Of a DNA stretch of 64,000 bases, positions 5,397 through 28,531 are shown in pieces (the first letter of the stretch is position 1; the number at the start of each line of letters is the position of its first letter). The notes beneath the pieces were generated by a model, which worked only from the letters and a program-made list of their open reading frames with translations, made no database searches and had not been told where the DNA came from. A program made the position numbers and the translations under genes. The stretch is taken from NCBI GenBank assembly GCA_965223415.1, contig OZ245002.1, positions 3,910,242 to 3,974,241 of the forward strand. Reading direction: 5' to 3'. This DNA is from Myxococcota bacterium (GTDB lineage: Bacteria; Myxococcota_A; UBA9160; UBA6930).

Positions 5397-5427
5397 GGAT
5401 TTTCGTCTTTTCTTCGCCACGGGTCAA
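5397..5427 (-). promoter_or_regulatory. dnaE2 promoter/operator TTGACC-N17-GAAAAT with CGAA-N7-CGAA repeat
   Basis: 27/31 identical to 28501-28531 upstream of imuA. Confidence 0.8.
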
Positions 5428-5462
5428 GTGTTCCTGCCCGGGGTTTCCGCCATCTTCGAGGT

Positions 5463-5837
5463 GTGGAACCGGGTCCTCTCGCTCTCGTCGTCGACGACGA
5501 GCCCATCGTCCAGCGCCTCGTGGCGCGCATCTTCGAGCGGGACGGCATCGAGGTGTGTCCGGCGATCGACGGCGACGGCGCCCTCGAGCGCATCCGCGAC
5601 CGCACGAGGCCTATCGACCGCGCGCTGATCGACGCCACCGTGCCGCCGGGCGGCGCCGCCCCCGTGATCGAGGCCCTGCTCGACCTCGACCCCCGTCCCC
5701 TCGTGGTCGTGACCAGCGGCAAGCCCCTCGACGGCGACCTGCAGCTCCTCGTCGAGCGCATCGGCGCCGTCTACCTGCCCAAGCCCTTCGGTCCCCAGTC
5801 CCTGCTCGATGCCGTGGAGGCCGCCCGTCGGTCGTGA
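5463..5837 (+). CDS. Single-domain response regulator (receiver)
   Basis: LVVDDE acidic pocket, phosphoacceptor LIDATVP, VTSG, LPKPF. Confidence 0.88.
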   Translation: MEPGPLALVVDDEPIVQRLVARIFERDGIEVCPAIDGDGALERIRDRTRPIDRALIDATVPPGGAAPVIEALLDLDPRPLVVVTSGKPLDGDLQLLVERIGAVYLPKPFGPQSLLDAVEAARRS

Positions 5838-5907
5838 GCCGCCGGCACGCTCGCCGCATCGCTCGCGTGCTCCCGCCGGGTCCGCACCGGTTTGCGAGAC
5901 TCCCGCC

Positions 5908-6852
5908 GTGACCCGGGTCCTCGTCATCGGTGCCGGAGCGGCCGGGCTGGCCGGCGCCCGCCGGCTCCAGGCCCTCGGCTGCGACGTCGAGGTGATCGAG
6001 GCCTCGGGCCGGGTCGGAGGCCATCTCACCGAGCTGCCCCTGTGCGTGCTGGACGCTGAGGCCCAGGAGGCCCTCGCCGTGCTCGGCGTGCGGGAGCTTC
6101 CGTCTGTCGGCGCGAGCGAGATCGCGGAGGCCGGTGCTCCGTCCGAGCCGGTTCGCACCACCGGAGGGTGGCGAGCTCTCGCCCGTCGGTGGCTGGCAGG
6201 GCTCCGCCCGCGCATCGCCGCGCCGCCTCCTCCCCGGGCTCCCGCCCTGATCCCCGGGGCGGCCCTCGCCCACGCCCTGGCTCCGGACGTGCCCGTCCGC
6301 TTCGGGTGGGAGGTGCTCGACGTGAAGGGCTCGGCCGTGGCCGCGACGGTCCAGTACGTCGCGCCCAGCGGAGAGCGCAGTCAGGACGCCGACGCGGCCC
6401 TGGTGACGCTGCCTGCCGAGCCGGGGACCGGCGTCGAACGTCGTCTGGCGATCTTCTTCACGGCGGGCTGCGACGGGGGCGCCGCCGCGGCGGCTGCGAC
6501 CCACGGGGCCGTACCGCCGGGAAGCGAGGCGGCCCACGTGTGGATCCTCCGGGACGGGGACCACGGGGTCGTGCGCATCGACCTGACCCCGGAGGCCTCC
6601 CGGGCGCTCTGGGATGCGGACGACGAAGAGCTGGCGACCTCCGTGTGGGACCTGCTGCCCGCCGACCTGCGGCTCGCCGAGGCGCGCCCCCAGGTGCACC
6701 GGTTCTGCGTGCCCGTGGCGGCCCCGGTCGACGCCGGCGACCTCCGGGTCGCCCGCGTGCCCGCGGCCGGCGACCTCGGCGCCACCCTCCGCGCGGCGGT
6801 CGCCACCGCCGAGGAGCTGGTCCAGCGGATCCATGGCAGCATGGCGCCATGA
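5908..6852 (+). CDS. FAD/NAD(P)-dependent oxidoreductase (amine oxidase/renalase-like, divergent)
   Basis: VLVIGAGAAGLAGA Rossmann motif, EASGRVGG; remainder poorly recognisable. Confidence 0.72.
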   Translation: MTRVLVIGAGAAGLAGARRLQALGCDVEVIEASGRVGGHLTELPLCVLDAEAQEALAVLGVRELPSVGASEIAEAGAPSEPVRTTGGWRALARRWLAGLRPRIAAPPPPRAPALIPGAALAHALAPDVPVRFGWEVLDVKGSAVAATVQYVAPSGERSQDADAALVTLPAEPGTGVERRLAIFFTAGCDGGAAAAAATHGAVPPGSEAAHVWILRDGDHGVVRIDLTPEASRALWDADDEELATSVWDLLPADLRLAEARPQVHRFCVPVAAPVDAGDLRVARVPAAGDLGATLRAAVATAEELVQRIHGSMAP

Positions 6853-7649
6853 CCACGCCGAACTCCTGGAACGACGACACCGAGTACGATTTCGGGGCCC
6901 TGGTCGGCGCCCTGAACCGCTACTTGCGGCTCCGCACCACCCCCGTGGGCATGAAGCGCTTCCGCGACGCGGCCGAGCTCGAGGGCATCCACCGGCTGCG
7001 TCGCCCGCCCGAGGGAGAGAAGCTCGCCACCGACCAGATCGTCGGGCAGTCCCGCTGGCTCGGCTACACGATCGGCATCACGATGGAGAATCTGGTCGGC
7101 GCCCAGTGCGGGGCCGTCGTCGGGCTGCACCCCCGGGACGAGGGCTTCCTGAGCGGCCACATGTTCAACGGCGTGTGGTACGGCGATCTCGAGAGCAGCG
7201 CCCGGCACCAGGAGGAGATGTCCTGCGCACCGTTCGGCGAGTACGAGGCCCTGGTCACCTCGCCGCTCACCTCCGGCCGCATCGACAACCCGGACATCTG
7301 CCTGGTCTACGGCACGCCCGGGCAGATGATCACCCTGATGAACGGCCTCCAGTACCGGAACTACCGCAAGTACACCTTCACCTGCGTCGGCGAGAGCGCC
7401 TGCGCCGATTCCTGGGGCCGCGCGCTCCAGAACGGCGAGCCCTCCCTGTCGATTCCCTGCTACGCGGAGCGCAAGTTCGGCGGAGTCCAGGACGACGAGA
7501 TGCTGATCGCGCTGGCGCCGCGTCACCTGCCCGGCATCGTGGACGGCCTCGCGTCCTTGAGCAAGAGCGGGCTCCGCTACCCGATCCCGAACCACGGGCT
7601 CGACAAGTCCCCGATCGCGAGCCTCGCCCAGAGCTACGGCGAACGTTAG
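6849..7649 (+). CDS. DUF169-family protein
   Basis: LRTTPVGMK, PDICLVYGTPGQM, GESACAD, SIPCYAERKFGG..DDEM; ATGA overlap with upstream gene. Confidence 0.8.
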   Translation: MTTPNSWNDDTEYDFGALVGALNRYLRLRTTPVGMKRFRDAAELEGIHRLRRPPEGEKLATDQIVGQSRWLGYTIGITMENLVGAQCGAVVGLHPRDEGFLSGHMFNGVWYGDLESSARHQEEMSCAPFGEYEALVTSPLTSGRIDNPDICLVYGTPGQMITLMNGLQYRNYRKYTFTCVGESACADSWGRALQNGEPSLSIPCYAERKFGGVQDDEMLIALAPRHLPGIVDGLASLSKSGLRYPIPNHGLDKSPIASLAQSYGER

Positions 7650-7651
7650 GC

Positions 7652-8821
7652 GTGGCCCCGGACCTCGACGTCTCGATCGAGGAGCTCCGTCGCCGGCGGG
7701 GCGGCAAGTGGACCGCCTTTCCGCCCGACGTCCTCCCGGCCTGGGTGGCGGACATGGACTTCCCCATCGCCGAGCCGATTCGGGAGGCGGTACTCGGCGT
7801 GCTCGAACGGAACGACGCCGGATACCCCGGGGAAGACTCGCACCGGGCCCTCGGCGCCGCCTTCGCGGCGCGCATGCAGGAGCGCTTCGGCTGGGCCCCC
7901 GATCCGCCCAAGGCCCTCCCCGTCGGCGATCTGATCCAGGCCATGATCGCGAGCGTGGCCAGCCTGACGGCGCCGGGCGAGGGCGTTCTGATCCAGACGC
8001 CCATCTACTATCCCTTCCTCCAGATCGTGGAGCTGCTGGGACGGCGCCTCGTCGAGAATCCCCTGGTCGAGACCGGCGACCGCTACGAGATGGACCTGGA
8101 CGGTCTGGACCGGGCGATCGACGAGGGGACGCGACTCGTCCTCTTCTGCAATCCCCACAACCCGACCGGCCGCGTGTTCGAACGCCGCGAGCTCGAGGGC
8201 CTGGCCGAGCGGGTCCTGCGTCATGACCTCGTCGTCGTGTCCGACGAGGTGCACTCGGACCTCGTCTACCCGGGTGCGACCCACGTCCCCTTCGCGTCCC
8301 TCGGGCCGGAGATCGCCTCCCGCACGATCACGCTGAACGCCGCCACCAAGGCCTTCAACATCGCCGGTCTGAAGTGCGCCCTGATCCACTTCGGCTCCAA
8401 GGCGCTCCGGGATCGCCTGGTCTCCGCCTTCCACCCGCGCCTGCTGGGCAGCCCCAACGTCTTCGGCATCGAGGCCACCCTCGCGGCCTGGCGCGACGGG
8501 GAGGTGTGGCTCACGGCAGCCGTCCGGCAGCTCGACGCGAACCGCGACACGCTCGCGCGCTTCCTCCGCGACCGGCTTCCGGAGGTGGGGTTCCATCCGC
8601 CGGAGGCGAGCTTCCTGGCGTGGATGGACTGTGGTGGGCTGGAGCTGCCCTCGCGGCCGTACGAGTTCTTCCTGTCCGAGGCGCGGGTGGCATTGAGCGA
8701 CGGCGCGGTGTTCAGCTCTCGGAGTGACGGGTTCGTGCGGTTGAACTTCGCGACGGCGGCGGGGGTTCTGGGAGAGGTGCTCGAGCGGATGGAAGCGGCG
8801 GTGCGGGGGGCGGCGGCGTAG
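7652..8821 (+). CDS. MalY/PatB-family PLP enzyme (cystathionine beta-lyase-like)
   Basis: LPAWVADMDF, CNPHNPTGRV, SDEVHSDL, TKAFNIAGL (PLP Lys), FVRLNFAT. Confidence 0.92.
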   Translation: MAPDLDVSIEELRRRRGGKWTAFPPDVLPAWVADMDFPIAEPIREAVLGVLERNDAGYPGEDSHRALGAAFAARMQERFGWAPDPPKALPVGDLIQAMIASVASLTAPGEGVLIQTPIYYPFLQIVELLGRRLVENPLVETGDRYEMDLDGLDRAIDEGTRLVLFCNPHNPTGRVFERRELEGLAERVLRHDLVVVSDEVHSDLVYPGATHVPFASLGPEIASRTITLNAATKAFNIAGLKCALIHFGSKALRDRLVSAFHPRLLGSPNVFGIEATLAAWRDGEVWLTAAVRQLDANRDTLARFLRDRLPEVGFHPPEASFLAWMDCGGLELPSRPYEFFLSEARVALSDGAVFSSRSDGFVRLNFATAAGVLGEVLERMEAAVRGAAA

Positions 8822-8952
8822 CCCGGTCGTGGCGGCGTGACTCTCGGGGTTGGGGTTGGTTGGGATCGGGCGCGTTCGGGTGGTTTCGCGGCTTCCTTCT
8901 CTCCTGCGGAACACCGGGGCGTCCCGGCCAGCTGGGAACGGGCCGGACGACG

Positions 8953-10473
8953 CTACCGACTCCCGCCCAGCTCCTCCCGCAGCTCGTGCTTCAGGATCTT
9001 CATCGTCGCGTTCCGAGGCAGGGCGTCCCGCAGCTCGAGCTGCTCCGGGATCTTCTGCGTCATGAGGCCCGCCGCACGGCAGTGTTCCACCATCTCGTCG
9101 AACTCCAGGGGTGACGCTCCCGGCGCGGTCTCGACCACGGCGCAGACGCGTTCTCCCCGAGTGGGGTCCGGCAATCCGATCACGGCGACGGCACCGACCT
9201 TCGGGTGGGTGTAGAGGACGTCTTCCACCTCCTGGGCGGAGACGTTCTCGCCCTTGCGGATGATGACGTCCTTGAGGCGCCCGGTGAGGACGACGTGGCC
9301 GTCCGCTCGGAGCAGACCGAGGTCCCCTGTGCGGAAGCGGCCCACGTCGTCGAAGGCATCGCGGTCCAGCGCGGGGTCGGTGTAGCCGTGGAAGAGCATC
9401 GGGCCGGCGACCCGTACCTCGCCCGGCTCGCCGGGGCCCGCGTCCCGGCCGTCCGGTCGGACGATCGAGACGCGCAGCCCTTCCACCGGCGCGCCTTCGC
9501 TGTGGGCGAGCTGGTCGTCGCTGTCGGTCGGGCGGCCCTGGCTGATCATCGGGCATTCGGTCATGCCGTAGCCGTGGGCGATGGGGATGTGGAGCTCGCG
9601 TTTGACTTCGAAGTAGAGCTCGGCCGGCATCGGGGCGCCGCCGCCGGCGAGGGCGCGGAGGGTGGGGAAGGCGGGCTCGTCGGGGCTGCGGCGTTGGTGC
9701 TCGAGCAGCATGGCGTAGAAGGCGGTGGAGCCGCCGGCCAGGGTCACACCGTGGCGTCGGAAGAGCCGCGCTGCTCCGTCGGGGGCGAAGCGCTCCATCA
9801 GGAGTGCACCGAAGCCGGCCTCCAGCATGGCGATGACGTAGTCGGGCCCACCGATGTGGGCGTAGGGGAAGGCGATCGAGCCCAGGTCGTCTTCGCCGGT
9901 GCCGAGGGCGGCGGCGAGGCCGCGGCCGGCGGCGAGGAGCGACGCGTCGGTGTGGAGGACGCCCTTCGGGTCGGAGGTGGTGCCGGAGGTCGTGTAGATC
10001 CAGCGCACGTCGTCGGCGGAGGTGGGAGGGGCGGGAAGGCCCGCCGGGTCGCCCTCCGGCAGCGCGTCGTAGGCGACGAGGACCTCCGGCGGCTCCGGCA
10101 GGCCGCGAGCGACGCTGCGTGCCATGGCCGCGTAGTCGAAGCCGTTCCAGACCCCCGGCGTGAGCACGAGGTGCGGCCGGGTCTGGCGCAGGCAGAAGCC
10201 CACCTCCCGCTCCCGGTAGAGGTGGATGATCGGGTTCTGGACGGCGCCGAGCCGGCACAGGGCGAAGGAGGCGACCAGGGTCTCGATGCGCGTGGGGAGC
10301 TGCCAGGTCACCGGCGTGTCGGCAGCGACGCCGAGCGCCGCCAGGCCCGCCGCCACGCGCTCCGCCCGGTCCCGGAACGCGCGAAAGCTCGTCCGCCGGT
10401 CCTCGGCGTCGATCAGCATCGTGCGGTCGGGGCTCCGGGCGACCCGCCACTCGAGCAGCTCCCAGAGGGTCAT
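8953..10473 (-). CDS. AMP-binding acyl-CoA synthetase (cyclohexanecarboxylate-CoA ligase-like)
   Basis: YTTSGTTSDPKG, YGMTE, FRTGDLG, GRLKDVIIRKGENV. Confidence 0.92.
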   Translation of the reverse strand: MTLWELLEWRVARSPDRTMLIDAEDRRTSFRAFRDRAERVAAGLAALGVAADTPVTWQLPTRIETLVASFALCRLGAVQNPIIHLYREREVGFCLRQTRPHLVLTPGVWNGFDYAAMARSVARGLPEPPEVLVAYDALPEGDPAGLPAPPTSADDVRWIYTTSGTTSDPKGVLHTDASLLAAGRGLAAALGTGEDDLGSIAFPYAHIGGPDYVIAMLEAGFGALLMERFAPDGAARLFRRHGVTLAGGSTAFYAMLLEHQRRSPDEPAFPTLRALAGGGAPMPAELYFEVKRELHIPIAHGYGMTECPMISQGRPTDSDDQLAHSEGAPVEGLRVSIVRPDGRDAGPGEPGEVRVAGPMLFHGYTDPALDRDAFDDVGRFRTGDLGLLRADGHVVLTGRLKDVIIRKGENVSAQEVEDVLYTHPKVGAVAVIGLPDPTRGERVCAVVETAPGASPLEFDEMVEHCRAAGLMTQKIPEQLELRDALPRNATMKILKHELREELGGSR

Positions 10474-10489
10474 CGGCCCGCCCGCCGAC

Positions 10490-11347
10490 TCAGTCGAGCT
10501 TCAGGACCTTGCGGGCGTTGTCGCGCAGGAACTTCGGCCACACGTGGTCGCGGAAGGGCACCTCGGGCATGTCGGTCATGATGCGCTCGAGGGAGAGCCC
10601 CATCGGGAAGTAGCCGGCGTAGATGATCTTGTCGGCGCCCCGGGTGTTCGCGTACTTCACGATCTCCTCCGGGTAGTACCGGGGCGCGAAGGCCGAGGTG
10701 GAGTAGTAGAGGTTCGGCCACTTCAGCATCAGCTTCATGGCCAGCTTCTCCCACGGCTCGCAGCCGTGGCGGGTCACGAAGACCAGCTCCGGGAAGTCGT
10801 ACATGACCTGGTCGACGTGCTCGACCTTCTGGGGCCACATCGGGAAGCGCGGTCCCGGCACGCCGACGCAGGAGAAGATCGGCACGTCCAGCTCCACGCA
10901 CTTCGCGTAGATCGGATACATCTTCGCGTCGTTGATGGCGACCTGCGGGTTGAAGCCTGCGTTGAAGGCGCCGAAGGAGGAGACGCCGAACTCCTCGTAC
11001 TGCCGGACCATGTCGCGGATGCCTTCCATCCCGCGGTTCGGGTCCACGTTGCCCTGGCCGACGAAGCGGTCGGGGTGGTCCTTCAGGGCCTTGTTCGTCA
11101 CCTCGCCGCCGACGCCGATCAGGCCGATCTCGACGCCGAAGCGGTCCATCTCGTGCAGGGTGATGGAGATCGGGTCCTTCGAGCCGTACAGCTCCTTCGG
11201 GACGTGCTTGAACATGTACTCGACCGGGAAGTCGAACTCCTTCGAGCCGTCCTTCAGCTGCTTGCGGATGAAGTCGTACTGCTCGAAGTCCTGCGCGGGA
11301 AAGCCGATCATGCAGTCGACGATGCCGATGTCGGCGGGCATGCCCAT
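10490..11347 (-). CDS. Amidohydrolase_2-family protein with atypical metal ligands
   Basis: YPIYAKCVELDVPI, FPELVFVTRHG, KWPNLYYSTSA, DKIIYA, FLRDNARKVL. Confidence 0.85.
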   Translation of the reverse strand: MGMPADIGIVDCMIGFPAQDFEQYDFIRKQLKDGSKEFDFPVEYMFKHVPKELYGSKDPISITLHEMDRFGVEIGLIGVGGEVTNKALKDHPDRFVGQGNVDPNRGMEGIRDMVRQYEEFGVSSFGAFNAGFNPQVAINDAKMYPIYAKCVELDVPIFSCVGVPGPRFPMWPQKVEHVDQVMYDFPELVFVTRHGCEPWEKLAMKLMLKWPNLYYSTSAFAPRYYPEEIVKYANTRGADKIIYAGYFPMGLSLERIMTDMPEVPFRDHVWPKFLRDNARKVLKLD

Positions 11348-11368
11348 GGGGGGTCCTTTCGTCGCGGC

Positions 11369-12610
11369 CTAGGAGGCCGCGGCCTGCTGCTCCGCGGCCT
11401 CGCGCAGCGCCGCCGTGAAGAGGTAGCAGTGCGAGTCCCGGGGAATCTGCTCCACCGGCAGGGGCGTGTCGATCTGCTCCGGCGTGGGCCCGTGCTGCCG
11501 GGCCAGGGGGCGCAGCTTGTCGAGGTCGAAGCCGTAGAGCTCCGCCGCGTTCTCGCCGAAGAGCCTGCGCCGCTGCTCCTCCGGGATGTCGGCGAAGGTC
11601 AGGCGCAGGGACTCGAGGTTGTGGGGGAAGGTGCCCTCGTAGTGCGGGTAGTCGTTGCCCCACAGGACCCGGTCCACGCCTACCTCTTCGATGCCTTGCA
11701 GCTCGACCTTGCTCGGGAAGCTCGCGCCGTACCAGCAGTTGCGCTTCGCGTAGAAGCTCGGCGGCTCGTCGAGGTGCCACTTCTGGTCGCCGTAGGTCAG
11801 CTCGCCGATGGCGCCGCGCTTCATGCCCATGTGGATGCGGTCCATGTGGGCGAGCATCTCCGGCGCCCAGGAGCAGCCGCTCTCGGTGAGGATGTACCGC
11901 AGCTTCGGGAAGCGCTGGAAGACGCCGCTCATGATCAGGTGCCGGTAGCCTCGGCGGCAGTAGAAGGCGACCTCCGAGACCCACAGGGCCTCGGCGACGA
12001 GCCCTTCTCCGTAGTCCGGCGATCCCTGCCCCGAGTGCTGGTTGATCACCAGGTCGTGGTCCTGGATCGCGGCGTACACCCTGTCCCAGTCCGGGTGGTG
12101 AAGGGGCTTCAGCCAGGTGCAATCCTCGGGGATCAGCGGAAGCAGCACGCCGCCTCGCAGGCCCGACTTGCCGATGAACTCGATGTCCTTCACCGCTTCG
12201 TCCAGGTCGTTCGGCAGGATGATGCCGATGCCCGCGCGGCGGTCCGGATCCTCGGCGCAGAAATCCACGAGCCAGCGGTTGTGGGCGCGGGCGCCGGCCA
12301 GGCACAGCTCGTAGTCCCCGGGCCGCGGCGGCTGGGTGGTGACGATGCTCTTCCGGTAGAAGGGTGGCACCGTGTTCGGGTAGACGACCTCGCCCACCAC
12401 GCCCTGGCTGTTCTGGTCGGCGATGCGGATCTCGAGATCCCAGTTGCGCTTCTTCTTTCGCCCGTAGTGCTCCTCGGACGGGTTGCGGTAGCCGCCCCGC
12501 CACTCGTCGAAGGCCTCCCGGTACTTCGGGTCGAGGTACTCGCGGTACTGGGAGTGGCTCCCCCCTGCGTGGGTGTCGGCGGTGATGAGGACGTAGGGGT
12601 CGTTGCTCAT
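11369..12610 (-). CDS. Amidohydrolase_2-family protein
   Basis: ITADTHAG, AHNRWL, SGVFQRFPKLRYILTE, WGNDYPHYEGTFP, GENAAELYGF. Confidence 0.92.
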   Translation of the reverse strand: MSNDPYVLITADTHAGGSHSQYREYLDPKYREAFDEWRGGYRNPSEEHYGRKKKRNWDLEIRIADQNSQGVVGEVVYPNTVPPFYRKSIVTTQPPRPGDYELCLAGARAHNRWLVDFCAEDPDRRAGIGIILPNDLDEAVKDIEFIGKSGLRGGVLLPLIPEDCTWLKPLHHPDWDRVYAAIQDHDLVINQHSGQGSPDYGEGLVAEALWVSEVAFYCRRGYRHLIMSGVFQRFPKLRYILTESGCSWAPEMLAHMDRIHMGMKRGAIGELTYGDQKWHLDEPPSFYAKRNCWYGASFPSKVELQGIEEVGVDRVLWGNDYPHYEGTFPHNLESLRLTFADIPEEQRRRLFGENAAELYGFDLDKLRPLARQHGPTPEQIDTPLPVEQIPRDSHCYLFTAALREAAEQQAAAS

Positions 12611-12620
12611 GGCAATAGAA

Positions 12621-12669
12621 TGAACGATTTCGCCAAAGAATTCAATGAAAATCTTACGAGATCGGTTCA
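12621..12669. promoter_or_regulatory. Double palindrome TGAA-N16-TTCA-T-TGAA-N16-TTCA (putative TetR operator), copy 1
   Basis: Same 49-bp architecture and shared core words as 51953-52001; AT-rich patch directly upstream of the 12610 start. Confidence 0.75.
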
Positions 12670-14480: not shown

Positions 14481-14506
14481 GGCCCGGGACGTTACCTTTC
14501 GGGATC

Positions 14507-15760
14507 GTGACCGCCGCCTCGCGCTTCCAGCGCACGATCCTGCACGCCGACATGGACGCCTTCTACGCGTCCATCGAGCAGCGGGACCACCCGGAGCTGC
14601 GGGGCAAGCCGGTGGTGGTCGGCGGCGCGGGCTCCCGCGGCGTGGTCTCCGCGGCGAGCTACGAGGCCAGGGAGTACGGCATCCACTCGGCCATGCCGAG
14701 CGCCCAGGCCCAGCAGCTCTGCCCCCACGCGATCTTCCTGCCCGGTCGGATGTCGGTCTACAGTGCCGATTCGAAGCGCATCTTCGAGATCTTCCGGCGC
14801 TTCACGCCGGCGGTGGAGGGCCTCTCCCTCGACGAGGCCTTCCTCGACATGACCGGCACCGAGCGGCTGCTCGGGCCGGTGGCCCGGGTGGGCGAGCGGC
14901 TGCGCAAGGAGGTGCGAGAGGAGACGGGTCTGGCCGTCTCGGTCGGAATCGCGCCGGTGAAGATGGTCGCCAAGATCGCCAGCGATTCGGCCAAGCCCGA
15001 CGGCCTGCTGGAGATCCGGCCCGGCGAGGTCCAGGAGTTTCTCTACCCGCTGCCGGTCGGCCGCATCTGGGGCGTGGGCCCGGTCGCCCGGGAGCGGCTG
15101 GCGCGCATCGGCGTGGAGACGATCGGCGACCTGGCCCGGGCCGAGGGGAAACGGCTCGAGGAGGTGCTCGGGGACTGGGGCCTGCGGGTGGCGCGCCTGG
15201 CCCGGGGCGTGGACGTGCGCGAGGTCGAGGCCTACCGGGATGCCGTCTCCATGAGCGAGGAGAACACCTTCGGCCGTGACGTCTCCGACGTGCGCAAGCT
15301 CGAAGCCGCCATCCTCACCCACGCCGAGTCCGTGGCCCGGCGGCTGCGGCGAAGCGAGGCGAAGGCGCGCACCGTCGTGCTCAAGGTGAAGCTCGCTCGC
15401 CGGGTGGCGGCGGGTCCCCGCGGCTTCCCTCTCTTGACCCGGCGGGAGACGCTGCCGGATCCCACGGACGACGGCGGCGAGATCGCCGACACCGCGAAGG
15501 CGCTCCTCGCCCGGACGGAGCTCGCCGAGCCCGTGCGCCTGGTCGGCGTCGGCGTGACGAACCTGATCTCGCGCCCGGAGCAGCTCTCGCTCTTCCGCAA
15601 GGGCAGCGGCCAGGAGAAGCGCGCGCGCCTCAATCGGGCCCTCGACCAGCTCACCGACCGCTTCGGCTCGAAGGCCGTGCGACGCGCCGGCCAGAGCGAC
15701 GTCGAGCGCATGGCCCCGAGCCTCCAGATCAAGCGGGGGGAGGACGAGCCGGATCGCTAG
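14507..15760 (+). CDS. dinB: DNA polymerase IV
   Basis: HADMDAFYASIEQ, SYEAR, SLDEAFLD, AKIAS...KPDG, WGVG, VRLVGV, clamp-binding EQLSLF. Confidence 0.96.
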   Translation: MTAASRFQRTILHADMDAFYASIEQRDHPELRGKPVVVGGAGSRGVVSAASYEAREYGIHSAMPSAQAQQLCPHAIFLPGRMSVYSADSKRIFEIFRRFTPAVEGLSLDEAFLDMTGTERLLGPVARVGERLRKEVREETGLAVSVGIAPVKMVAKIASDSAKPDGLLEIRPGEVQEFLYPLPVGRIWGVGPVARERLARIGVETIGDLARAEGKRLEEVLGDWGLRVARLARGVDVREVEAYRDAVSMSEENTFGRDVSDVRKLEAAILTHAESVARRLRRSEAKARTVVLKVKLARRVAAGPRGFPLLTRRETLPDPTDDGGEIADTAKALLARTELAEPVRLVGVGVTNLISRPEQLSLFRKGSGQEKRARLNRALDQLTDRFGSKAVRRAGQSDVERMAPSLQIKRGEDEPDR

Positions 15761-15783
15761 GCGCAGGTCTCTCGACTCGGTCG

Positions 15784-16251: not shown

Positions 16252-16342
16252 GATGGAGGAATCATCCAATAATTGAGTAAGAACCGCAAGAATCCTCCCA
16301 AACGGTGCAGTCCAGGGCCCAGAAAGAAGCGATCTGTCAACG

Positions 16343-17176: not shown

Positions 17177-17187
17177 TGGGAGACGCC

Positions 17188-20362: not shown

Positions 20363-20380
20363 CGGCACGGGGAGGACGTC

Positions 20381-21064
20381 ATGGCCCATCCGCGCAGCCT
20401 CGAGGCGCTCGTCAACCAGCAGGTCCGTCGCTGGGAGCTCTCGCCGCAGGGCGCCCCGGGCCGCCGGGTCGCGCCGACCGTCGCGCTCTCCCGCCTTCCG
20501 GGCTCGGCCGCCGCGGAGCTGGGCCAGGCCGTCGCCGACCGCCTCGGCTTCGGCTTCTTCGGCATCGAGATCGTCGACCTGATCGCCCGGGAGACCGGCA
20601 CCCGACGGGAGCTCGTGGCCGGGCTCGACGAGCACGTTCGCAGCGCCATCGAGCGCTACGTCGTGGACGCGACCAAGGGGCGCACCTACGACGAGAGCGC
20701 CTATCACCAGCAGCTGGTCCGGACCGTGGCGACCCTCGGCGAGCGCGGGCTGGCGGTCATCCTGGGCCGCGGAAGCGCCTTCCTGTTGCGGCCCGAGCGC
20801 TCCCTTCGTGTGCTGGTGGTCGCGCCAAGGGACCAGCGGGTGGAGCGGCTGGCGAAGCGCCTCGACGTGGACGCCGCGACCGCTGCGACCCGTCTCGACC
20901 GGGAGGATGCGGAGCGGCTGCACTTCAACCGACACCACTTCCACGTGGACCCGGATGACGCGAGCCACTTCGACCTGGTCGTGAACACGGGAACGCTCTC
21001 GCTCGGGCTCGCGACGGACCTGGTCGTCGAGACGGCCCAGCGGAGGTTCCCGCAGCTGGGCTGA
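20381..21064 (+). CDS. Cytidylate kinase-like family protein
   Basis: VALSRLPGS, VILGRG, LRVLVVAP, DREDAER, FDLVVNT. Confidence 0.85.
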   Translation: MAHPRSLEALVNQQVRRWELSPQGAPGRRVAPTVALSRLPGSAAAELGQAVADRLGFGFFGIEIVDLIARETGTRRELVAGLDEHVRSAIERYVVDATKGRTYDESAYHQQLVRTVATLGERGLAVILGRGSAFLLRPERSLRVLVVAPRDQRVERLAKRLDVDAATAATRLDREDAERLHFNRHHFHVDPDDASHFDLVVNTGTLSLGLATDLVVETAQRRFPQLG

Positions 21065-21068
21065 TCGG

Positions 21069-22357
21069 TCAGCCGCCCGGCGCGACGTCGAAGCATGCCC
21101 GGTAGCGCGCGAAGGCGGCCCGGAGCTCCTGCGGGTCGGCGCCCAGGCCGTCGAGCGGGTAGGCGTGCCCGCCGTAGCGATTCGCCGGATTCTCGCCGAG
21201 GGCCTTCGCCATGGCGGCTTCGGTGTCCGCATTCCAGGGCCGCTGGAAGCGGGTGTAGAGCCCGCGCACGACCGCGAGCGCGTCCCGCTGGAAGTCCTCG
21301 AAGTGGCTGTGATGCACCCGCGCCTCGGGCAGGAGCCCCGCCTCCGTCCAGTCCACCAGGGCCTCGAAGGTCGCGCAGTAGCGCCGCAGGTGGCCCTCGG
21401 CGATCGCGTCTCCCTCGACCACGTCGCTGTGGGCCCAGCGGAGGTTGGCGATCAGCTGGTCAGGGACGCCAGCAAGGTGGGCGGGTCCCGGTGTGTGACG
21501 GCGATGCGCGCGTCCGGGTAGATGGCCAGCAGCGTCGGCAGCGAGTGCAGATGGACGGGGGACTTCAGGACCCAGGCCGACGTGGGACACCGACGTTGGA
21601 GCACCTGGAGGACGAGGCGATGCATCCGATAGGCCGGCTCCATGTCGGCGCCGAAGAGCCAGCGCTCGTAGCTCGGGACGGCGTAGCGCGCCGTGAACTC
21701 CTCGGACTGGAAGACCAGGGACATGGCCGAGAGGCACTCCTTCGGTCGTCGTGCCCCGTACTCGTGGATGGCCCGCAGCCCGCTCACCACTGTCTGGGGG
21801 CCGGCGAGCTCGCGCTCGGCCAGGGCGACCCGCGGATCGTCGTCCGAGGCCTCCGGGTCACTCCGTGGAGGGGGCACCGGGCGCAGCAGCTCCCAGCCGA
21901 GGGGCACCCGGTGGCGCGGATCGGCGGCGAGCAGGGTGTGGAGGATGGTCGTCCCCGTCCGGGGCGCACCGGCGACGAAGAGCGGCGCGTCGATGGCCTC
22001 GTCCACGACGCCCGGGTCGCCGTCCAGGTACGCGAGGAGCTGCAGTCGCACCTCCAGGAGCCGCAGCAGGAAGCGCCGCGTGAGGAGGCGCCCGACCTGC
22101 GTGAGGCGCGCCTCCTCCTCGAGGGCCGTGGTGAGCAGGCCCAGGTTCCCGATCGCCGGCTCCGCTTCGAAGCCGGGCCGCCCGAAGGCGGCGCGCAGCT
22201 CGGAGGGCGAGCGCGCGTCCCGGCCCTGCCGGGCAGCCGCCTCCGCCAGCAGCGCGTCGCGTTGGAGCGGCAGCGCGGCCTCCTCCGCCACCGGGCCCGC
22301 CTCGGCCGCGTTCAGGGCCACCACCCAGTCGGGACGCGCGGGCGGCTCCCAGCTCAC
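21069..22357 (-). pseudogene. Sulfotransferase with a 1-nt frameshift near 21454 (pseudogene or sequencing error)
   Basis: PAPS motif GAPRTGTT, WVLKSP, THRDP in one frame ending LASLTS*; C-terminal half (LIANLRWAHSD...) in another frame; adding one C restores LTSLIANL. Confidence 0.85.
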
Positions 22358-23544
22358 GTCCGGAAGCGCCACGCGAGGTGGCTCTTGCGCCGCCGGATCT
22401 CCTCGCGGCGGGCCGCCGCGTCGACCTCCGGCGTGTCCCCGGGCAGCGCGTCGCGCAGCTCGGCGCGGGGAAGCGTCCGGACCTTCGGGGTCGGGTCGCT
22501 CTCGGCCCAGAACCAGCGGTAGGTCAGGATCCCGCTTCGGTGGCCGGCGGTGTCGAGCCAGTTCGGCACGCGCGGATCCTCGTGGGCCAGGACGAATCGC
22601 ACACGCCCGTCGCCGCCCACCACGGCCTGGTGCTGGTTGATCGACGTCACCCGGTGGACGGGCTCGATCGGCTCGAACCAGCCGAGGCTCGCGATCTGCA
22701 GCCCCCAGTATCGCGCTCGGGGCACGTCCGTCTCGATCAGGAGCGCCTGCTCGGGACCCAGATCCCAGAACAGGAAGCCGTAGCGGGCGTCCGAGAGCAC
22801 CTTCGCGACGGTTCCGTGCATCGTGAAGGTGTTGTCCGCGGCCTCCGCGCGATGCTGCTGGAGGTATTCGTTCCAGCCGAGCATCGAGCGCTCGACCTGC
22901 TCGAGCGCATGGTCGAGCTGCGCCGCGATCCGCTCCGGCCCGGGCGGGGGCGGGGCGCCCTTGGGGTCGAGGCATTCGATGGTGAACACGGCCGGCTCGG
23001 CCGGCTGCCAGTCGACGTAGAACTCCCGCAGGGAGACCGTGGTGACGTCCTCGGGAATCGCCGTCCAGCCCGGCTCGCTGCCATTGCCGCCCAGCAGGAT
23101 CTCGAAGTCGTCGCCCGGGCCGAGGCCGAGGTCGACCGAGGAGATCGCCTTCTTCGTTCCCCACTCCTTCATGTGCATGAAACCCACCCGCAGCGTCAGC
23201 GCGAAGTGCTCGCAACTGTGCATGCGCCCGCGAATTCGATACCGGTGCTTCGGGTCGATCCGCGCGTGGTGGTAGGCGTTGTCCTGGTTCGGGCCGCCCC
23301 ATTGGGTGAAGAGGTCGTTCGAGCGGTGGAAGAAGGGTGCGCTCGTGTCCGCGTGGGCGAGCGCCCAGCCGAGCCAGCAGGAGACCTGGTCGGCGAGGTG
23401 GGCGACGCCCTCCGAGACGTCGCGGGGCTCGTTCGGGAATTCGTCCTCCAGCAGACGCTCGCCGAGGGCCTCCACGCGCCGGCAGAAGCGCTTCCAGGCT
23501 CGGACGTCCTCGGGGAGCGAAGGCGCGGGCCCCCTCTCGCTCAT
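22354..23544 (-). CDS. DUF1214-like protein (sulfotransferase-associated)
   Basis: WGGPNQDNAY, YRIRG, GDDFEI, LREFYVDW, DGRVRFVLAHEDP.VPNWLDTAG; GTGA overlap with sulfotransferase. Confidence 0.8.
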   Translation of the reverse strand: MSERGPAPSLPEDVRAWKRFCRRVEALGERLLEDEFPNEPRDVSEGVAHLADQVSCWLGWALAHADTSAPFFHRSNDLFTQWGGPNQDNAYHHARIDPKHRYRIRGRMHSCEHFALTLRVGFMHMKEWGTKKAISSVDLGLGPGDDFEILLGGNGSEPGWTAIPEDVTTVSLREFYVDWQPAEPAVFTIECLDPKGAPPPPGPERIAAQLDHALEQVERSMLGWNEYLQQHRAEAADNTFTMHGTVAKVLSDARYGFLFWDLGPEQALLIETDVPRARYWGLQIASLGWFEPIEPVHRVTSINQHQAVVGGDGRVRFVLAHEDPRVPNWLDTAGHRSGILTYRWFWAESDPTPKVRTLPRAELRDALPGDTPEVDAAARREEIRRRKSHLAWRFRT

Positions 23545-24329
23545 GCCCGCATCACGCCGCCGCCGTCGACCATGAAGGTCTGGCCGGTCACGTAGCGGCT
23601 CGCGTCCGACAGCAGGAAGGCCACCACCGGCGCGATGTCCGCCTCCGGGTCTCCGTCGCGGCCGAGTGGGTGGTCCTTGTACATCTCGGCGAAGGCCGCG
23701 GCGCGCTGGCCGTCATCGTCCGCGACCGCCATGCGGTGGGCCACGGAAGCCGGGCAGACGCAGTTCACCGTGATTCCGAACTCGCCCCACTCGCGGGCGG
23801 CGGTCCGGGTGAGAGAGCGGGTCCCCTCCTTCGCCGCCGAGTAGGGGCCGTAGCCCGGCGCCCCCGTCAGGCCCATGGCGGAGCCCATCGTCACGATGCG
23901 CCCGCGGCCGAGGGCCTGCATGTGGGGAAGCACCGCCTGCATCAGCCAGAGCGTGCCCTTCGGCCCCGTGTCCAGGACGCGATCGATGTCTTCGGGCCGG
24001 ACATCCGCCAGCTTCGTGACGGGACGCAGGGATTGGGCGTTCGCGACGAGGCCGTCGATCCGGCCGAAGGCGTCGATCGCGGTCGCCGCGACGGCGCGGC
24101 TGGCCTCCGGATCGGCGACGTCCGCGACCCTCGTACGATGGGGCGCGCCCAGGGCACGGAGCTCCTCGCCCAGCCGCTCGAGACGCTCCTGCTTGCGCCC
24201 GGTGATCGTCAGCTGGACGCCGGCCCTCGCGAGCACGCGCGCCAGGCCGAGGCCGATGCCCCGCGTCCCACCCGTCAGGACGACGCTTCGACCCGCCAGG
24301 TCGCCCGGGATCACGGAGAGGTCCTCCAC
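23541..24329 (-). CDS. SDR family oxidoreductase
   Basis: TGGTRGIG, YSAAK, ITVNCVCP, YVTGQTFMVDGG. Confidence 0.93.
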   Translation of the reverse strand: MEDLSVIPGDLAGRSVVLTGGTRGIGLGLARVLARAGVQLTITGRKQERLERLGEELRALGAPHRTRVADVADPEASRAVAATAIDAFGRIDGLVANAQSLRPVTKLADVRPEDIDRVLDTGPKGTLWLMQAVLPHMQALGRGRIVTMGSAMGLTGAPGYGPYSAAKEGTRSLTRTAAREWGEFGITVNCVCPASVAHRMAVADDDGQRAAAFAEMYKDHPLGRDGDPEADIAPVVAFLLSDASRYVTGQTFMVDGGGVMRA

Positions 24330-24347
24330 GGCCGCACGATACCGCGC

Positions 24348-25139
24348 CTACGCGACGGGCGCGGCGGCGATCCGGACCAGAGCGGTCGAGGTGAGGGCGT
24401 CGTCTCGACCGCGGTCCCGCTGCGTCACGCAGAGCATCCCGGCAGCGGGCTCGCCGATCCAGTGGGCCTCGCTCTCCACGGGTCCGATGGAGGCCGCAGC
24501 CAGGTAGCGAAGATCGAGCTCGGTCACGACGGCCGGGCCCTCGGCTGCGTGCTCGGCGAGGGCCAGCGAGGCGCACTCGGCGAGGAGGGCGACGAGGGCG
24601 CCCTGGAGCACGCCCTCGGGGTTCAGCAGCGCTTCGCGAAGCGCCAGGCGGACCGCACCGCGCGTCGCGTCGACCGTCTCGACGCCGACCTCCTCGTCGA
24701 GGGGGCGTTCCAGGGGGTGGAAGGGGATCTGCTCCGGCGTCGCGAGCGTGCGCCGATCCGGCACGGGTCCGCTGCGGGCCCGGCGCAGGAACGTCGTCTG
24801 CCCGTAGGCGTGCATGCCTTCGCCGGATTCCAGGCGGACCTCCGTCGTGACCAGCCGGCGGCCGACGCGAAGCGGGGTGGCGTGGGCGATCACCTTCGCG
24901 GGCACGCCCGGCCGCGGGACGCGCAGGGAGAGGTCCGTCGTGAAGGTAGCGTCGGTACCGGCGGCCTCCCGGGCCGTGAATCCGCCCACCAGGTCGACCG
25001 CCGATGCGAGCACCGTCGCGCGCAGGGCGCCGTTCCGGCAGACCTGCGGGTAGGGCTCGACCCGCAGCGGGGTCCGTGCGACGCCCGTTCGCGAGAATCC
25101 GTAGCGGGTGAAGAGCGGAGGCGTCCGGTCCGCGGTCAA
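24348..25139 (-). CDS. Double-hotdog PaaI-type thioesterase
   Basis: Two hotdog repeats (LASAVDLVGG...TTDLSLR; NPEGVLQGALVALLAE...LDLRYLAA..GP); TTG start overlapping upstream stop. Confidence 0.78.
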   Translation of the reverse strand: MTADRTPPLFTRYGFSRTGVARTPLRVEPYPQVCRNGALRATVLASAVDLVGGFTAREAAGTDATFTTDLSLRVPRPGVPAKVIAHATPLRVGRRLVTTEVRLESGEGMHAYGQTTFLRRARSGPVPDRRTLATPEQIPFHPLERPLDEEVGVETVDATRGAVRLALREALLNPEGVLQGALVALLAECASLALAEHAAEGPAVVTELDLRYLAAASIGPVESEAHWIGEPAAGMLCVTQRDRGRDDALTSTALVRIAAAPVA

Positions 25140-25927
25140 CGCTTCGGCACGTCCGGAGTGGGGGTCGGGTAGCGGCAGGCGATGCCGCCGTCGACGGGGA
25201 CGACGACGCCCGTCACGTAGCTCGCCTCGTCGGAGGCGAGGAAGAGGGCGACGTTCGCGATCTCCTCCGGCGCGCCGAGCCGGCGCAGGGGCACGCCCTC
25301 CTCCATGCGCTGCCTCAGGCCTTCCACGGAGTCGAGGTACGAGGCGAAGCCCTCGGAGGCGATCGGCCCCGGCGAGATCACGTTGGCGCGGATGCCATGG
25401 GGGCCGTACTCCTCCGCCACGCTCTTGGCGAGGTTCACGACGCCGGCCTTGGCCATTCCGTACGCCGCGAGTCCCGGCACCGCGCCGAGCCCCGCACCGG
25501 ACGTGGTGATGAGGATGCAGCCGGACCTGCGCGGCAGCATCACCCGGAGCGCCGCGCGGGTTCCGAAGAAGACGCCGTCGAGGTTCAACGCCAGGGTCGC
25601 GCGGTACTCGTCGTCGCGGAGGCCCTCGGTGGGCTGCGGGAGTGCGCCACCCGCGTTGCTGAACATGACGTCGAGTCGCCCGAAGTCGTTCACCGCCCGG
25701 TCGACGAGCCCGTCGACTTGCGCCGAGTCGGTGACGTCGGCGGGATGGCAGATCGCGTTTCCGCCGAACTCGACGATGGTCTTTGTCGTGTCCTCGGCGG
25801 TCGCTGCGTCGACGTCGCTGACGACGACCGTCGCGCCGGACCGGGCGAAGCGGATCGCGCAGGCCCGCCCGATGCCCCGGCCGCTTCCGGTGATGATCGA
25901 GATCCTGCCGGCGAGTCGTTCGTCCAT
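25136..25927 (-). CDS. SDR family oxidoreductase
   Basis: TGSGRGIG, FSNAG, YGMAK, IRANVISPG, YVTGVVVPVDGG. Confidence 0.93.
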   Translation of the reverse strand: MDERLAGRISIITGSGRGIGRACAIRFARSGATVVVSDVDAATAEDTTKTIVEFGGNAICHPADVTDSAQVDGLVDRAVNDFGRLDVMFSNAGGALPQPTEGLRDDEYRATLALNLDGVFFGTRAALRVMLPRRSGCILITTSGAGLGAVPGLAAYGMAKAGVVNLAKSVAEEYGPHGIRANVISPGPIASEGFASYLDSVEGLRQRMEEGVPLRRLGAPEEIANVALFLASDEASYVTGVVVPVDGGIACRYPTPTPDVPKR

Positions 25928-25932
25928 GGCGG

Positions 25933-27717
25933 CTAATCGTACACCGCGTCGATGGACCAGCAGCGTCCGACGTGGTCGCATCGCAAGCGGAAGACCCAGC
26001 CGTCGCGGGTCTGCACGTCGTAGTGGTCGAAGGCGTAGCGCTCGCCCTCGGACCACCAGCGGCCGGTGGTGCGCCAGGGGCCGGCGCAGTGGACGACGTC
26101 GCCGTTGGCCAGGGGGCTGCGGATCCGGCGCGGCTGGCCGCCCGGCGCGTCGACCTGGGCGCGCACCGGCGGGCGCAGGGCGCGCAGCGCCAGGTGGGGG
26201 CGCGTGGGGTCCGGAGGCTCGGACGCTCCGGCTTGGGAGGGGCGGAAGGCGGCGACCTCGTAGGCGTCCGGGCGGTGGTCGTCGGCGACGGCGGGGGCGC
26301 CGACGCGATCGGCGCCGCACAGGGCGCCGAGCTCGGCGAGGGTGTGGTCGAGGACGGCGGGGCTCGGGCCGGGAGGACGGAAGAAGTCGAGCTGGTCGCC
26401 GCGCAGGGGCGCGCCGGGCGTCGCCAGGCGCACGTGGATGGGCGCCTCGCCCGGTGGCTTCGACTCGAGGGAGAGGGCGACCAGCCGCAGGGCCAGGCGC
26501 GGATCGACGGTGGGGGCGGCCAGGCCGACGCGTCGCGCGTCGCGGCCGCCGCCCTCGAAGCCGAGCTCGAGCTCGAGATCGCCCAGGGCCAGGCCGCGAC
26601 AGGTGAGCCGCCCCTGCAGCCGCGAGAGCATGCCGCGCAGCACGAACAGCAGGGGCTCGAGCTGCTGCACGGCGAACTCGAGCTCCATGGCCTCCTCGAA
26701 GCAGAGCGTGGCCTCGGCGGAAGGAGGCGGCGCGCGGTCGTGGCCGCGGGCCAGATCGAGGAGCGGCACCACCCGCGCGCCGAGGCGCTGGGTGAGGGCA
26801 CGTTCGGACAGGCGCAGCAGGTCGGAGACCCGGCGCAGGCCGAAGCGGGTGAGTGCGCTGGCGAGATCGTCGTCCGGATCCAGCAGGTCGAGGGGGAGAG
26901 GGGCCAGGGCCTCCGCGTCTTCGCCCGGCGGCACGACGCGCACGCTCTCGCCGGCGAAGGCGAGCTGCCGGGCGAGGATGCGGGCGGCGCCGCGGGAGCC
27001 GGCCACCGCCACCACGCCGGGCAGTCCGAGTCGCGCCGCACGCTCGCCGAGGGCGCTGGCGAAGCCGGCCTCGGAGTGGAAGAGGGCGCTCGTGCCGCTC
27101 GCGTCCACGATGGCGGCGGCCTCGGCGGCGTGCAGGCCGCTTCCGGCCGGGGCGAGCTCGGCGCGGGGCGAGGTGGAGAGCGCCGCGTCGAGGAGCGCGT
27201 CCCGGGCGGCGCGCTCGAGCGCGGGCGAGGCGACCTGCACGTGGAGCTCGGCGCAGGCGGCGCGGGCGTGCACCACGGTCGTACCGGGGCGGACCGCCGC
27301 CCGCGCCGCTTCGGGCGAGACCGCCAGGATCTCGGCGCGGGAGCCCGCGGCGGAGGCGACGGCAAAGGGGCGTCCCCGAAGCTCCGGGTGGGCGCGCAAG
27401 GCGGCGGCGAGGGGCATGGCCGGGATCAGGAGACACGCCAGTCTGTTGGGACTTCGCTCGCCGGTCGTTCGCTTCCGCTCACGGGCTCGCTGCGCGTGCC
27501 TCGCTTCGCGGGTCGCTTGCGGGAGGAGAGGTGCGCTGGGCTCGTCGCTGCGGGCGGGCTCCTTGCGCGGCTTCGTCGGCTCGCGTTTCGCCTTCGGCGG
27601 CGGCTCGAGCTCGGGGAGCAGCGCCGGCTGCTCGAGACGCTCGGTGAGTCGCTCGCGACGGATGCGCTTGGCGCGCGGAGCCTCGTCGCGGGAATCGGGA
27701 CGCGTGGGGGGGGACAC
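25933..27717 (-). CDS. imuB: ImuB (inactive Y-family polymerase homologue)
   Basis: Y-family fold lacking DxDxF and DE catalytic motifs; clamp motif DQLDFF; C-terminal GPWRTTGRWW...YDV; downstream of imuA. Confidence 0.9.
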   Translation of the reverse strand: MSPPTRPDSRDEAPRAKRIRRERLTERLEQPALLPELEPPPKAKREPTKPRKEPARSDEPSAPLLPQATREARHAQRARERKRTTGERSPNRLACLLIPAMPLAAALRAHPELRGRPFAVASAAGSRAEILAVSPEAARAAVRPGTTVVHARAACAELHVQVASPALERAARDALLDAALSTSPRAELAPAGSGLHAAEAAAIVDASGTSALFHSEAGFASALGERAARLGLPGVVAVAGSRGAARILARQLAFAGESVRVVPPGEDAEALAPLPLDLLDPDDDLASALTRFGLRRVSDLLRLSERALTQRLGARVVPLLDLARGHDRAPPPSAEATLCFEEAMELEFAVQQLEPLLFVLRGMLSRLQGRLTCRGLALGDLELELGFEGGGRDARRVGLAAPTVDPRLALRLVALSLESKPPGEAPIHVRLATPGAPLRGDQLDFFRPPGPSPAVLDHTLAELGALCGADRVGAPAVADDHRPDAYEVAAFRPSQAGASEPPDPTRPHLALRALRPPVRAQVDAPGGQPRRIRSPLANGDVVHCAGPWRTTGRWWSEGERYAFDHYDVQTRDGWVFRLRCDHVGRCWSIDAVYD

Positions 27718-27738
27718 GTCGCGCTCCGGGTGGTGGAA

Positions 27739-28494
27739 TCATGCGGCGCGCTCGTCTTCGGCGCGCGTTGGCCCGTTTCCGACGGTGGGCTCGCTCTCTG
27801 CGCGCCAACGCACGGGGACGGAGCGGCCGTCGGGGCCGAGGCGGTTGCGGACCAGGGCGACGCGACCGTCGAGCCCTTCGAGCCAGGCCGGGCCGGCTTC
27901 GAAGCAGGGACGCGCCTCCCCCAGCTCGAGGGCGAGATCGGCGAAGGTGCCGATCAGCCGCTGGTGGCTGAGCGTGACGAAGGCGGCGGAGGTGGAAGCC
28001 ACGAGCTTGCGCACGCGCGGCCAGACCGCCTGGGAGACCCGCGGCGTCTCGTGGGCCATGGCCAGGTCGAGCAGCACCAGGGCGAAGCCTCCGGCGCGCA
28101 GCACGTGCTCGGCGCAGCGCAGGGCCTCGGGCACGCCAGGGGGCCGGGCCCAGAGCACCCGGGCCAGGTCGACGCCGCCGTCCCGGGCCGAGATCGGGTC
28201 GAAGGCGTCGGCGCGGTCGATCACGCAGGCCAGCCCGCCGCCGGCCGTGGCCCGGGCGAGCAGGGCATGGGCCAGGGAGGTGCGGCCGCAGGAGGCCGGG
28301 CCGGCGATCTCGCTCACGCGCCCGCGCGGGAAGCCGCCCCCGAGCAGCGCGTCCAGCGGCTCCAGGCCGGTGGGCTGGCGTTCTTCGGGCAGACCGGGGC
28401 CGCCGCCTCGTCGGACGGGGACGGGAAGGGAGCGCAGGAGTCTCTCAAGGCGGCCGTCCTCGGCGGGGGCGGCTGCCCGGGGGGGCGAGAGCAT
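27739..28494 (-). CDS. imuA: ImuA / RecA-like mutasome protein
   Basis: TGLEPLDALLGGGFPRGRVSEIAG, degenerate Walker A GPASCGRTS, FDP...GVDLARVLW, GGFALVLLD. Confidence 0.88.
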   Translation of the reverse strand: MLSPPRAAAPAEDGRLERLLRSLPVPVRRGGGPGLPEERQPTGLEPLDALLGGGFPRGRVSEIAGPASCGRTSLAHALLARATAGGGLACVIDRADAFDPISARDGGVDLARVLWARPPGVPEALRCAEHVLRAGGFALVLLDLAMAHETPRVSQAVWPRVRKLVASTSAAFVTLSHQRLIGTFADLALELGEARPCFEAGPAWLEGLDGRVALVRNRLGPDGRSVPVRWRAESEPTVGNGPTRAEDERAA

Positions 28495-28500
28495 GACTCG

Positions 28501-28531
28501 GGATTTTCGCTCTTTCTTCGCCTCGGGTCAA
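28501..28531 (-). promoter_or_regulatory. imuA promoter/operator TTGACC-N17-GAAAAT with CGAA-N7-CGAA repeat
   Basis: 27/31 identical to 5397-5427; ATG 8 nt after the -10; -35 overlaps the purN stop. Confidence 0.8.

Follow-up and report, generated by a model that had tools for sequence, protein, structure and literature searches.

A shared predicted promoter and LexA operator at the separated halves of an imuA-imuB and dnaE2 mutasome in a Myxococcota bacterium

The window analyzed here is a 64,000-nucleotide (nt) stretch of a Myxococcota genome (assembly GCA_965223415.1, contig OZ245002.1, positions 3,910,242 to 3,974,241, forward strand), in which the genes of an error-prone repair mutasome, imuA-imuB and dnaE2, stand in two separate places, each preceded by a closely similar sequence of 31 nt. 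We read both of these 31-mers as sigma-70-type promoters overlaid by an operator for LexA, an arrangement by which imuA-imuB and dnaE2 would be induced together after DNA damage, and give this reading a probability of roughly 0.85. Both contain a direct repeat, CGAA-N7-CGAA, or TTCGC-N6-TTCGCC when the opposite strand is read, and this repeat is very probably the operator of LexA. The observations behind this proposal are the motif itself, its presence in lexA promoters, its conservation among relatives and its co-variation with the recognition helix of LexA. Plain positions below are those of the window, and those that begin with C1 are positions in the genome.

Two matching predicted promoters 23 kb apart

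One 31-mer, TTGACCCGAGGCGAAGAAAGAGCGAAAATCC (28531 to 28501, minus strand), precedes imuA, and the other, TTGACCCGTGGCGAAGAAAAGACGAAAATCC (5427 to 5397, minus strand), precedes dnaE2. They are identical at 27 of 31 positions and lie 23.1 kilobases (kb) apart, so that the pairing originally noticed in the bare sequence was reproduced in both coordinates and identity. A 19-mer pattern, allowed up to three mismatches, found only these two sites in the window, and two matches occurred in none of 100 shuffles. The genome that holds the window is a single contig of 5,833,097 bases with 71% G+C; over this whole length neither 31-mer had a further match at up to six mismatches, and a partial match with eight mismatches sits before a tRNA gene. 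A promoter scan independently returned, at both sites, the parse that had been proposed by eye: TTGACC, a spacer of 17 nt and GAAAAT, agreeing with the consensus at 9 of 12 positions (mean over 50 shuffles, 0.0). The elements are as follows.

28526..28531, minus strand: -35 hexamer TTGACC of the imuA promoter (promoter scan; TTGAC is kept at the same distance in the imuA promoters of relatives)
28505..28522: predicted LexA operator at imuA, GGCGAAGAAAGAGCGAAA on the coding strand and TTTCGCTCTTTCTTCGCC on the plus strand (matrix score 24.6, rank 4 in the genome)
28503..28508, minus strand: -10 hexamer GAAAAT of the imuA promoter (promoter scan)
5422..5427, minus strand: -35 hexamer TTGACC of the dnaE2 promoter (promoter scan)
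5401..5418: predicted LexA operator at dnaE2, GGCGAAGAAAAGACGAAA on the coding strand and TTTCGTCTTTTCTTCGCC on the plus strand (matrix score 26.6, best in the genome)
5399..5404, minus strand: -10 hexamer GAAAAT of the dnaE2 promoter (promoter scan, conservation in relatives)

The putative operator would be an 18-base-pair (bp) element, a head-to-tail repeat of TTCGC with a period of 11 bp, laid over the spacer and the -10 hexamer. It would be read on the non-coding strand, so that the coding strand shows GGCGAA-N7-CGAAA; at imuA it takes in the spacer together with four of the six -10 bases. The dnaE2 start codon, GTG (5391-5389), begins 7 nt past the -10, and the imuA ATG (28494-28492) 8 nt past it, which are the distances first reported for them. 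The 8-nt gap at imuA leaves no space for a Shine-Dalgarno sequence. From this geometry alone, the imuA and dnaE2 mRNAs would be leaderless, starting at or beside the start codon.

The repeat in lexA promoters

One line of evidence that the repeat belongs to LexA comes from lexA itself. As first stated, the window holds no lexA: the only copy in the genome (C1:457,972-458,571; TIGR00498, 198 bits against a cut-off of 110.95) lies about 3.45 megabases away. Its promoter reads TTGACC-TTCG-N7-TTCG-G-CGAA-N7-CGAA, that is, two boxes in facing orientation, with matrix scores of 19.7 and 18.3 (the matrix is described below). The encoded LexA aligns over its full length to the solved LexA chains 3k2z and 1jhh and retains readable VAAG, GDSM and LKRF motifs. 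These we take, by the corresponding positions of E. coli LexA, to be the cleavage site, the Ser and the Lys, respectively. Judged by these features, the protein is a canonical LexA of the self-cleaving type.

To look beyond this genome, 80 lexA loci of other genomes were gathered through LexA protein similarity. The closest LexA records (57-72% identity) are labelled mostly Myxococcota, Myxococcales or Deltaproteobacteria, and those near 50% identity carry the labels Acidobacteriota, Gemmatimonadales, Nitrospina and others. Of the 80 foreign loci, 72 have an exact TTCG-N7-TTCG in the 220 nt before lexA, as against one of 77 control segments from the same loci, and TTCG repeats spaced by N6 or N8 occur upstream of lexA in none of the 80. 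The period of 11 bp is a property of the lexA promoters as well, and the boxes stand where autoregulation by LexA would place them, both in the genome's own lexA promoter and in those of relatives. In the commonest foreign form, cTTGACgTTCGCtttcttTTCGCCTA, the repeat fills the spacer between -35 and -10, and in many of the foreign loci the box fits this spacer exactly.

Co-variation with the LexA recognition helix

What mainly leads us to prefer LexA over another regulator is that the motif varies together with the recognition helix of LexA. Among 47 LexA proteins that were aligned, all 23 whose promoters carry the motif share the helix ATVH(K/E)H, and these include records labelled Acidobacteriota, Gemmatimonadales and Nitrospina. 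Within the window's own phylum, the box precedes lexA in 3/3 genes of the same class and in 0/17 of other classes (best score 12.8), and 16 of these 17 boxless LexA proteins carry a different helix, S-T/P-N-G/A-V-x-D/E-H. Within the phylum, identity to the LexA of this genome is 59-92% in the same order and class and mostly 35-48% in other classes, the latter below the approximately 50% seen with records labelled Acidobacteriota. The motif thus follows the type of LexA across phylum labels (Acidobacteriota, Gemmatimonadales, Nitrospina and Myxococcota among the records of this type). This bears on the original prediction, which proposed a lineage-specific site for a damage regulator, be it a divergent LexA or some other protein: the damage regulator is supported by the lexA promoters and the orthologous loci, while the site is not specific to one lineage of organisms.

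Could the repeat be the site of another damage regulator, either of the XRE type, like DdiA, or a WYL-type activator, that controls lexA, imuA-imuB and dnaE2 in parallel with LexA? Precedent exists in the phylum. In Myxococcus xanthus, DdiA activates dnaE2 without involvement of LexA; mitomycin C raised the abundance of ImuB whether or not DdiA was at work, and a lexA deletion mutant had less ImuB (PMC12288472). The lack of a box at recA, a usual LexA target (see below), also speaks for such a regulator. Nevertheless, the presence of the motif in the lexA promoters of several phyla is the classical signature of autoregulation, and the motif tracks the LexA recognition helix (23/23 with one helix; 16/17 boxless with another) rather than organismal relatedness, and we consider a parallel regulator improbable; no candidate for one was identified, although no search was aimed at such a protein. 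The RecA-independent promoter motif bound by mycobacterial PafBC presumably does not fit the repeat in its spacing.

Genome ranking and conservation among relatives

The bare pattern CGAA-N7-CGAA was of little use for scanning: its 164 matches in the genome, 42 of them outside crude gene calls, show no enrichment over other spacings, because codon periodicity swamps the signal. Counting was therefore replaced by a matrix of 18 positions, built from 53 distinct foreign lexA sites only, all of them picked for an exact TTCG-N7-TTCG. A score of at least 20 was taken as a strong box, and lexA loci of relatives were counted at a score of at least 14. Among all positions of the genome the dnaE2 site ranks first (26.6) and the imuA site fourth (24.6), and just 9 of 17,676 genome windows of 330 nt reach 20.

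Conservation was assessed in orthologous loci drawn from up to 60 genomes of the same genus, family and order. A strong box lies within 300 nt upstream of dnaE2 in 30/30 loci (our own included), 28 of them with the orientation and layout seen in the window. For imuA, 23 of 29 usable loci have a strong box within 250 nt; five of the remaining six have a box at 281-302 nt (scores 18.2-23.9), which brings the count to 28/29 with the wider search, and the sixth offers just 251 nt of upstream sequence. A gene of the PA0069 radical-SAM family carries a strong box in 23/30 orthologous loci, always on the coding strand. In this genome that box lies outside the window, at C1:760,400-760,417, directly before the ATG and with one mismatch, and the gene is probably a fourth unit of the predicted regulon. 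The imuA, dnaE2 and radical-SAM counts are independent of the matrix training; at lexA, where 30/30 loci of relatives have a box and 18 have the facing pair, the training collection overlaps the relatives' genomes and the count is not independent of the matrix. Several genes thus keep the box, and the outcome that was named at the outset as refuting, absence of the motif from the promoters of further repair genes and from the upstream regions of orthologs, is the opposite of what is found at lexA, dnaE2, imuA and the radical-SAM gene. Of the genes whose upstream regions had been suggested for scanning, lexA gave a positive answer (twice in its own promoter, and in the 72 foreign loci) and recA a negative one.

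These comparisons also bear on a simpler explanation, namely that the two 31-mers are merely a strong core promoter that stayed in place or was duplicated as an ancestral imuA-imuB-dnaE2 operon came apart, with the repeat being no operator at all or part of a promoter for an alternative sigma factor. Both sequences do parse as promoters, the second repeat unit overlaps the -10, so that promoter constraint could explain part of its conservation, and relatives have the split arrangement too, their imuA and dnaE2 lying on one contig at a distance of 6-43 kb. For 49 imuA and dnaE2 promoters of relatives the consensus is TTGAC-N5-aGGCGAAnAaAAggCGAAAaT, followed 6-10 nt on by ATG, GTG or TTG; the final T of the -10 is present in 98% and the AAA before it in 96-100%. 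However, the first unit, GGCGAA, is likewise invariant in all 49, even though it lies in the spacer, where sigma-70 needs no sequence. At imuA and dnaE2 the box lies on the non-coding strand, and at the radical-SAM gene it lies on the coding strand; lexA has boxes on both strands. Occurrence in both orientations relative to transcription points to the site of a factor rather than to a promoter element. The two units are, moreover, just 7 nt apart, and the -35 and -10 elements of alternative sigma factors are spaced more widely than this. We regard a mere core promoter as very improbable, less probable still than a parallel regulator.

Other high-scoring sites of the genome were inspected individually. 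Two further CGAA-N7-CGAAAAT sites are not clearly regulatory: one stands some 90 nt ahead of a tRNA gene and lacks a -35, and the other falls within called coding sequence at 2.4 kb from recA. At C1:4,431,361-4,431,430, four A-rich CGAAAA(T/C) words stand roughly 60-120 nt ahead of a tRNA gene; of these, the first two as a pair score 24.3 on the LexA matrix, with no TTGAC before them. The second-best site of the genome, C1:1,766,194-1,766,211 (25.7), is 32 nt before a gene for 222 amino acids without a family match. This gene was rejected as a member of the regulon, its box being found in only one of the six other best-matching loci (38-69% identity; a multi-copy protein family). A palindrome, GTGAC-N-GTTCCGGTCAC, precedes the box there; palindrome and box both occur in one related locus (in genome G009) and neither occurs in five others. 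Finally, a weak box (13.6) precedes ruvC by 55 nt, at C1:16,565-16,582.

A model for joint control of the two halves

From these data we infer LexA binding, repression, induction by damage and the start of transcription, and the following sequence of events is proposed. In the undamaged cell, LexA would occupy the operator at both promoters and, lying over the spacer and the -10, would keep RNA polymerase out. Two LexA DNA-binding domains may bind head to tail, as an analogy with the alphaproteobacterial box suggests. After damage, self-cleavage of LexA stimulated by RecA would free both promoters simultaneously, and imuA-imuB, dnaE2, lexA and the PA0069-family radical-SAM gene would be induced together.

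Several observations weigh against this proposal. The -10, GAAAAT, agrees with the consensus at just 4 of 6 positions. Seven aligned foreign lexA loci lack the exact motif within 220 nt although six of them have the ATVHKH helix, and one LexA of the same phylum (G099, 54% identity) has the helix ATVHRH and no box within 350 nt; the co-variation described above therefore holds with these exceptions, the six foreign proteins and G099. Relatives are kin, so the counts overstate independence; the overlap noted for lexA is another limit. Several of the other high-scoring sites of the genome are inside coding sequence or before unrelated genes. The dinB gene of the window has no box upstream (best matrix score -4.1). 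Finally, a strong box precedes recA (C1:3,313,668-3,314,717 in this genome) in 0/30 loci, those of the genome and 29 relatives, even when up to 1.5 kb upstream are searched; the background in the recA loci is one of 341 windows reaching 20. With recA boxless throughout, the predicted LexA regulon of the lineage seems to lack recA, a classical core SOS gene.

The split mutasome and its surroundings

The genes of the mutasome and those next to them are the following.

2239..5391, minus strand: dnaE2, error-prone DNA polymerase of 1050 amino acids, GTG start at 5391 (NCBIfam NF004225, 1231.5 bits, cut-off 939)
5463..5837, plus strand: response-regulator receiver gene, divergent from dnaE2, the two having a 71-nt intergenic region in common
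14507-15757, plus strand: dinB, DNA polymerase IV (above NCBIfam cut-offs)
25933..27717, minus strand: imuB-like gene, Y-family, 594 amino acids (Pfam IMS domain, E 1.3e-10)
27739..28494, minus strand: imuA-like gene, RecA fold, 251 amino acids (Pfam RecA, 62.7 bits)
28528-29175: upstream gene of imuA, formyltransferase-like (Formyl_trans_N match)

The imuA-like protein reaches 48.4 bits with the NCBIfam ImuA model NF033429, whose cut-off is 150, and a profile search gave no NCBIfam match for the imuB-like protein. The imuB gene begins 21 nt downstream of imuA, and the two are presumably co-transcribed. After imuB, six genes of the same strand follow with gaps of at most 29 nt or with overlaps (21069-25927, minus strand): two short-chain dehydrogenases, a 4HBT thioesterase, a sulfotransferase and two without a family match. 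Transcription of imuA-imuB might continue into them. On the other side, the -35 of imuA (28526-28531) includes the TGA stop codon (28530-28528) of the formyltransferase-like gene, and the 33-nt gap between that gene and imuA consists entirely of promoter and operator. At dnaE2, the start position is occupied by GTG, TTG or ATG in relatives too, and the predicted operator could also act on the divergent response-regulator gene.

The three genes are not contiguous: a distance of 20.5 kb separates dnaE2 from imuB, and the 21 genes called in this interval include some for tyrosine and phenylalanine catabolism, further metabolic genes and dinB. Since many relatives, too, have imuA and dnaE2 on one contig at distances of 6 to 43 kb, the cassette must have been split long ago, with inserted DNA of variable length.

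Significance and comparison with known systems

The switch proposed here is of an ordinary kind, in a spelling and a bacterial group without an earlier description, and is possibly a variant that can be defined separately. It would hold a split mutasome under one control by giving each half its own copy of promoter and operator, and it provides a predicted LexA operator for an uncultured class of Myxococcota. The results also suggest TTCGC-N6-TTCGC as the better spelling for the operator that is common throughout Acidobacteriota and further soil phyla, and a TTCGC matrix could be used to predict SOS regulons in thousands of metagenome-assembled genomes. The apparent position of recA outside the regulon and the recurring radical-SAM gene may be of interest to specialists.

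A broader proposal, for which we would give somewhat less than even odds, is that TTCG(C)-N7-TTCG(C) together with the helix ATVHKH marks a distinct LexA lineage that crosses phyla. Taken as a whole, this proposal would have the lineage spread over Acidobacteriota, Gemmatimonadota, Nitrospinota and one class of Myxococcota, with that class closer in its LexA to Acidobacteriota than to its own phylum; its minimal regulon here would consist of lexA, imuA-imuB, dnaE2 and the PA0069-type radical-SAM gene, a "mutasome-first" regulon without recA; and the GTTC-N7-GTTC published for Acidobacterium would be a register-shifted description of this operator, as opposed to the alphaproteobacterial box.

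The nearest known relative is the direct-repeat LexA box of Alphaproteobacteria, GTTC-N7-GTTC, as given in three reports (PMC8565304, PMC9578287, PMC12700426). Both are head-to-tail repeats of a tetranucleotide with a TTC core, and both stand over the promoters of lexA and of imuA-imuB-dnaE2 in genomes with a canonical, cleavable LexA. The common N7 spacing and 11-bp period had been noted from the start, but to call the site a candidate new SOS box, as was done then, was an overstatement given this published kin. What differs is the register, since the invariant letters here are TTCG(C), one base shifted from GTTC. An exact GTTC-N7-GTTC is present in 1/80 lexA, 2/29 imuA and 0/30 dnaE2 upstream regions; the base before TTC in the window's four sites is T or C, and among the 53 sites used for training, all selected for an exact TTCG-N7-TTCG, it is G in 14-17%. 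The spelling TTCG-N7-TTCG or CGAA-N7-CGAA, with or without hyphens, was not found in the literature searched. The LexA helix ATVHKH, too, probably differs from the alphaproteobacterial one. The title of Mazon et al. 2006, Microbiology 152:1109, reports a LexA box of the alphaproteobacterial type for Acidobacterium capsulatum as well. Records labelled Acidobacteriaceae show the ATVHKH helix with TTCGC repeats, sometimes with a preceding G, which suggests that the box of A. capsulatum is probably of the same operator class as the TTCG repeat and was described in a shifted register.

The cassette itself is known as an SOS-regulated mutagenesis unit from Caulobacter crescentus and others, as set out in PMC9578287. 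What are probably the same three types of gene stand here under an operator predicted to be of the LexA type, and a function in translesion synthesis is expected. Unlike the Caulobacter-type cassette, the one described here is split, with metabolic genes and a boxless dinB in between, and each half has its own promoter and operator. In Balneolaeota, LexA reads a different direct repeat, TTACACATATTTTWTACATA, and its regulon is a small set of genes centered on translesion polymerases that includes a radical-SAM protein (PMC7739468). These features resemble what is predicted here, whereas the sequence of the repeat is unrelated and recA is inside that regulon as there described. Radical-SAM genes of the splB type are also counted among SOS genes in PMC8565304.

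The comparison within the phylum, as grouped by record titles, is with M. xanthus, whose damage response is divided between LexA and DdiA in the account cited above (PMC12288472). In both bacteria imuA-imuB and dnaE2 are separate units. In M. xanthus dnaE2 is DdiA-dependent and LexA-independent; here both units carry the box of lexA. This contrast would represent a regulatory rewiring of error-prone repair within one phylum.

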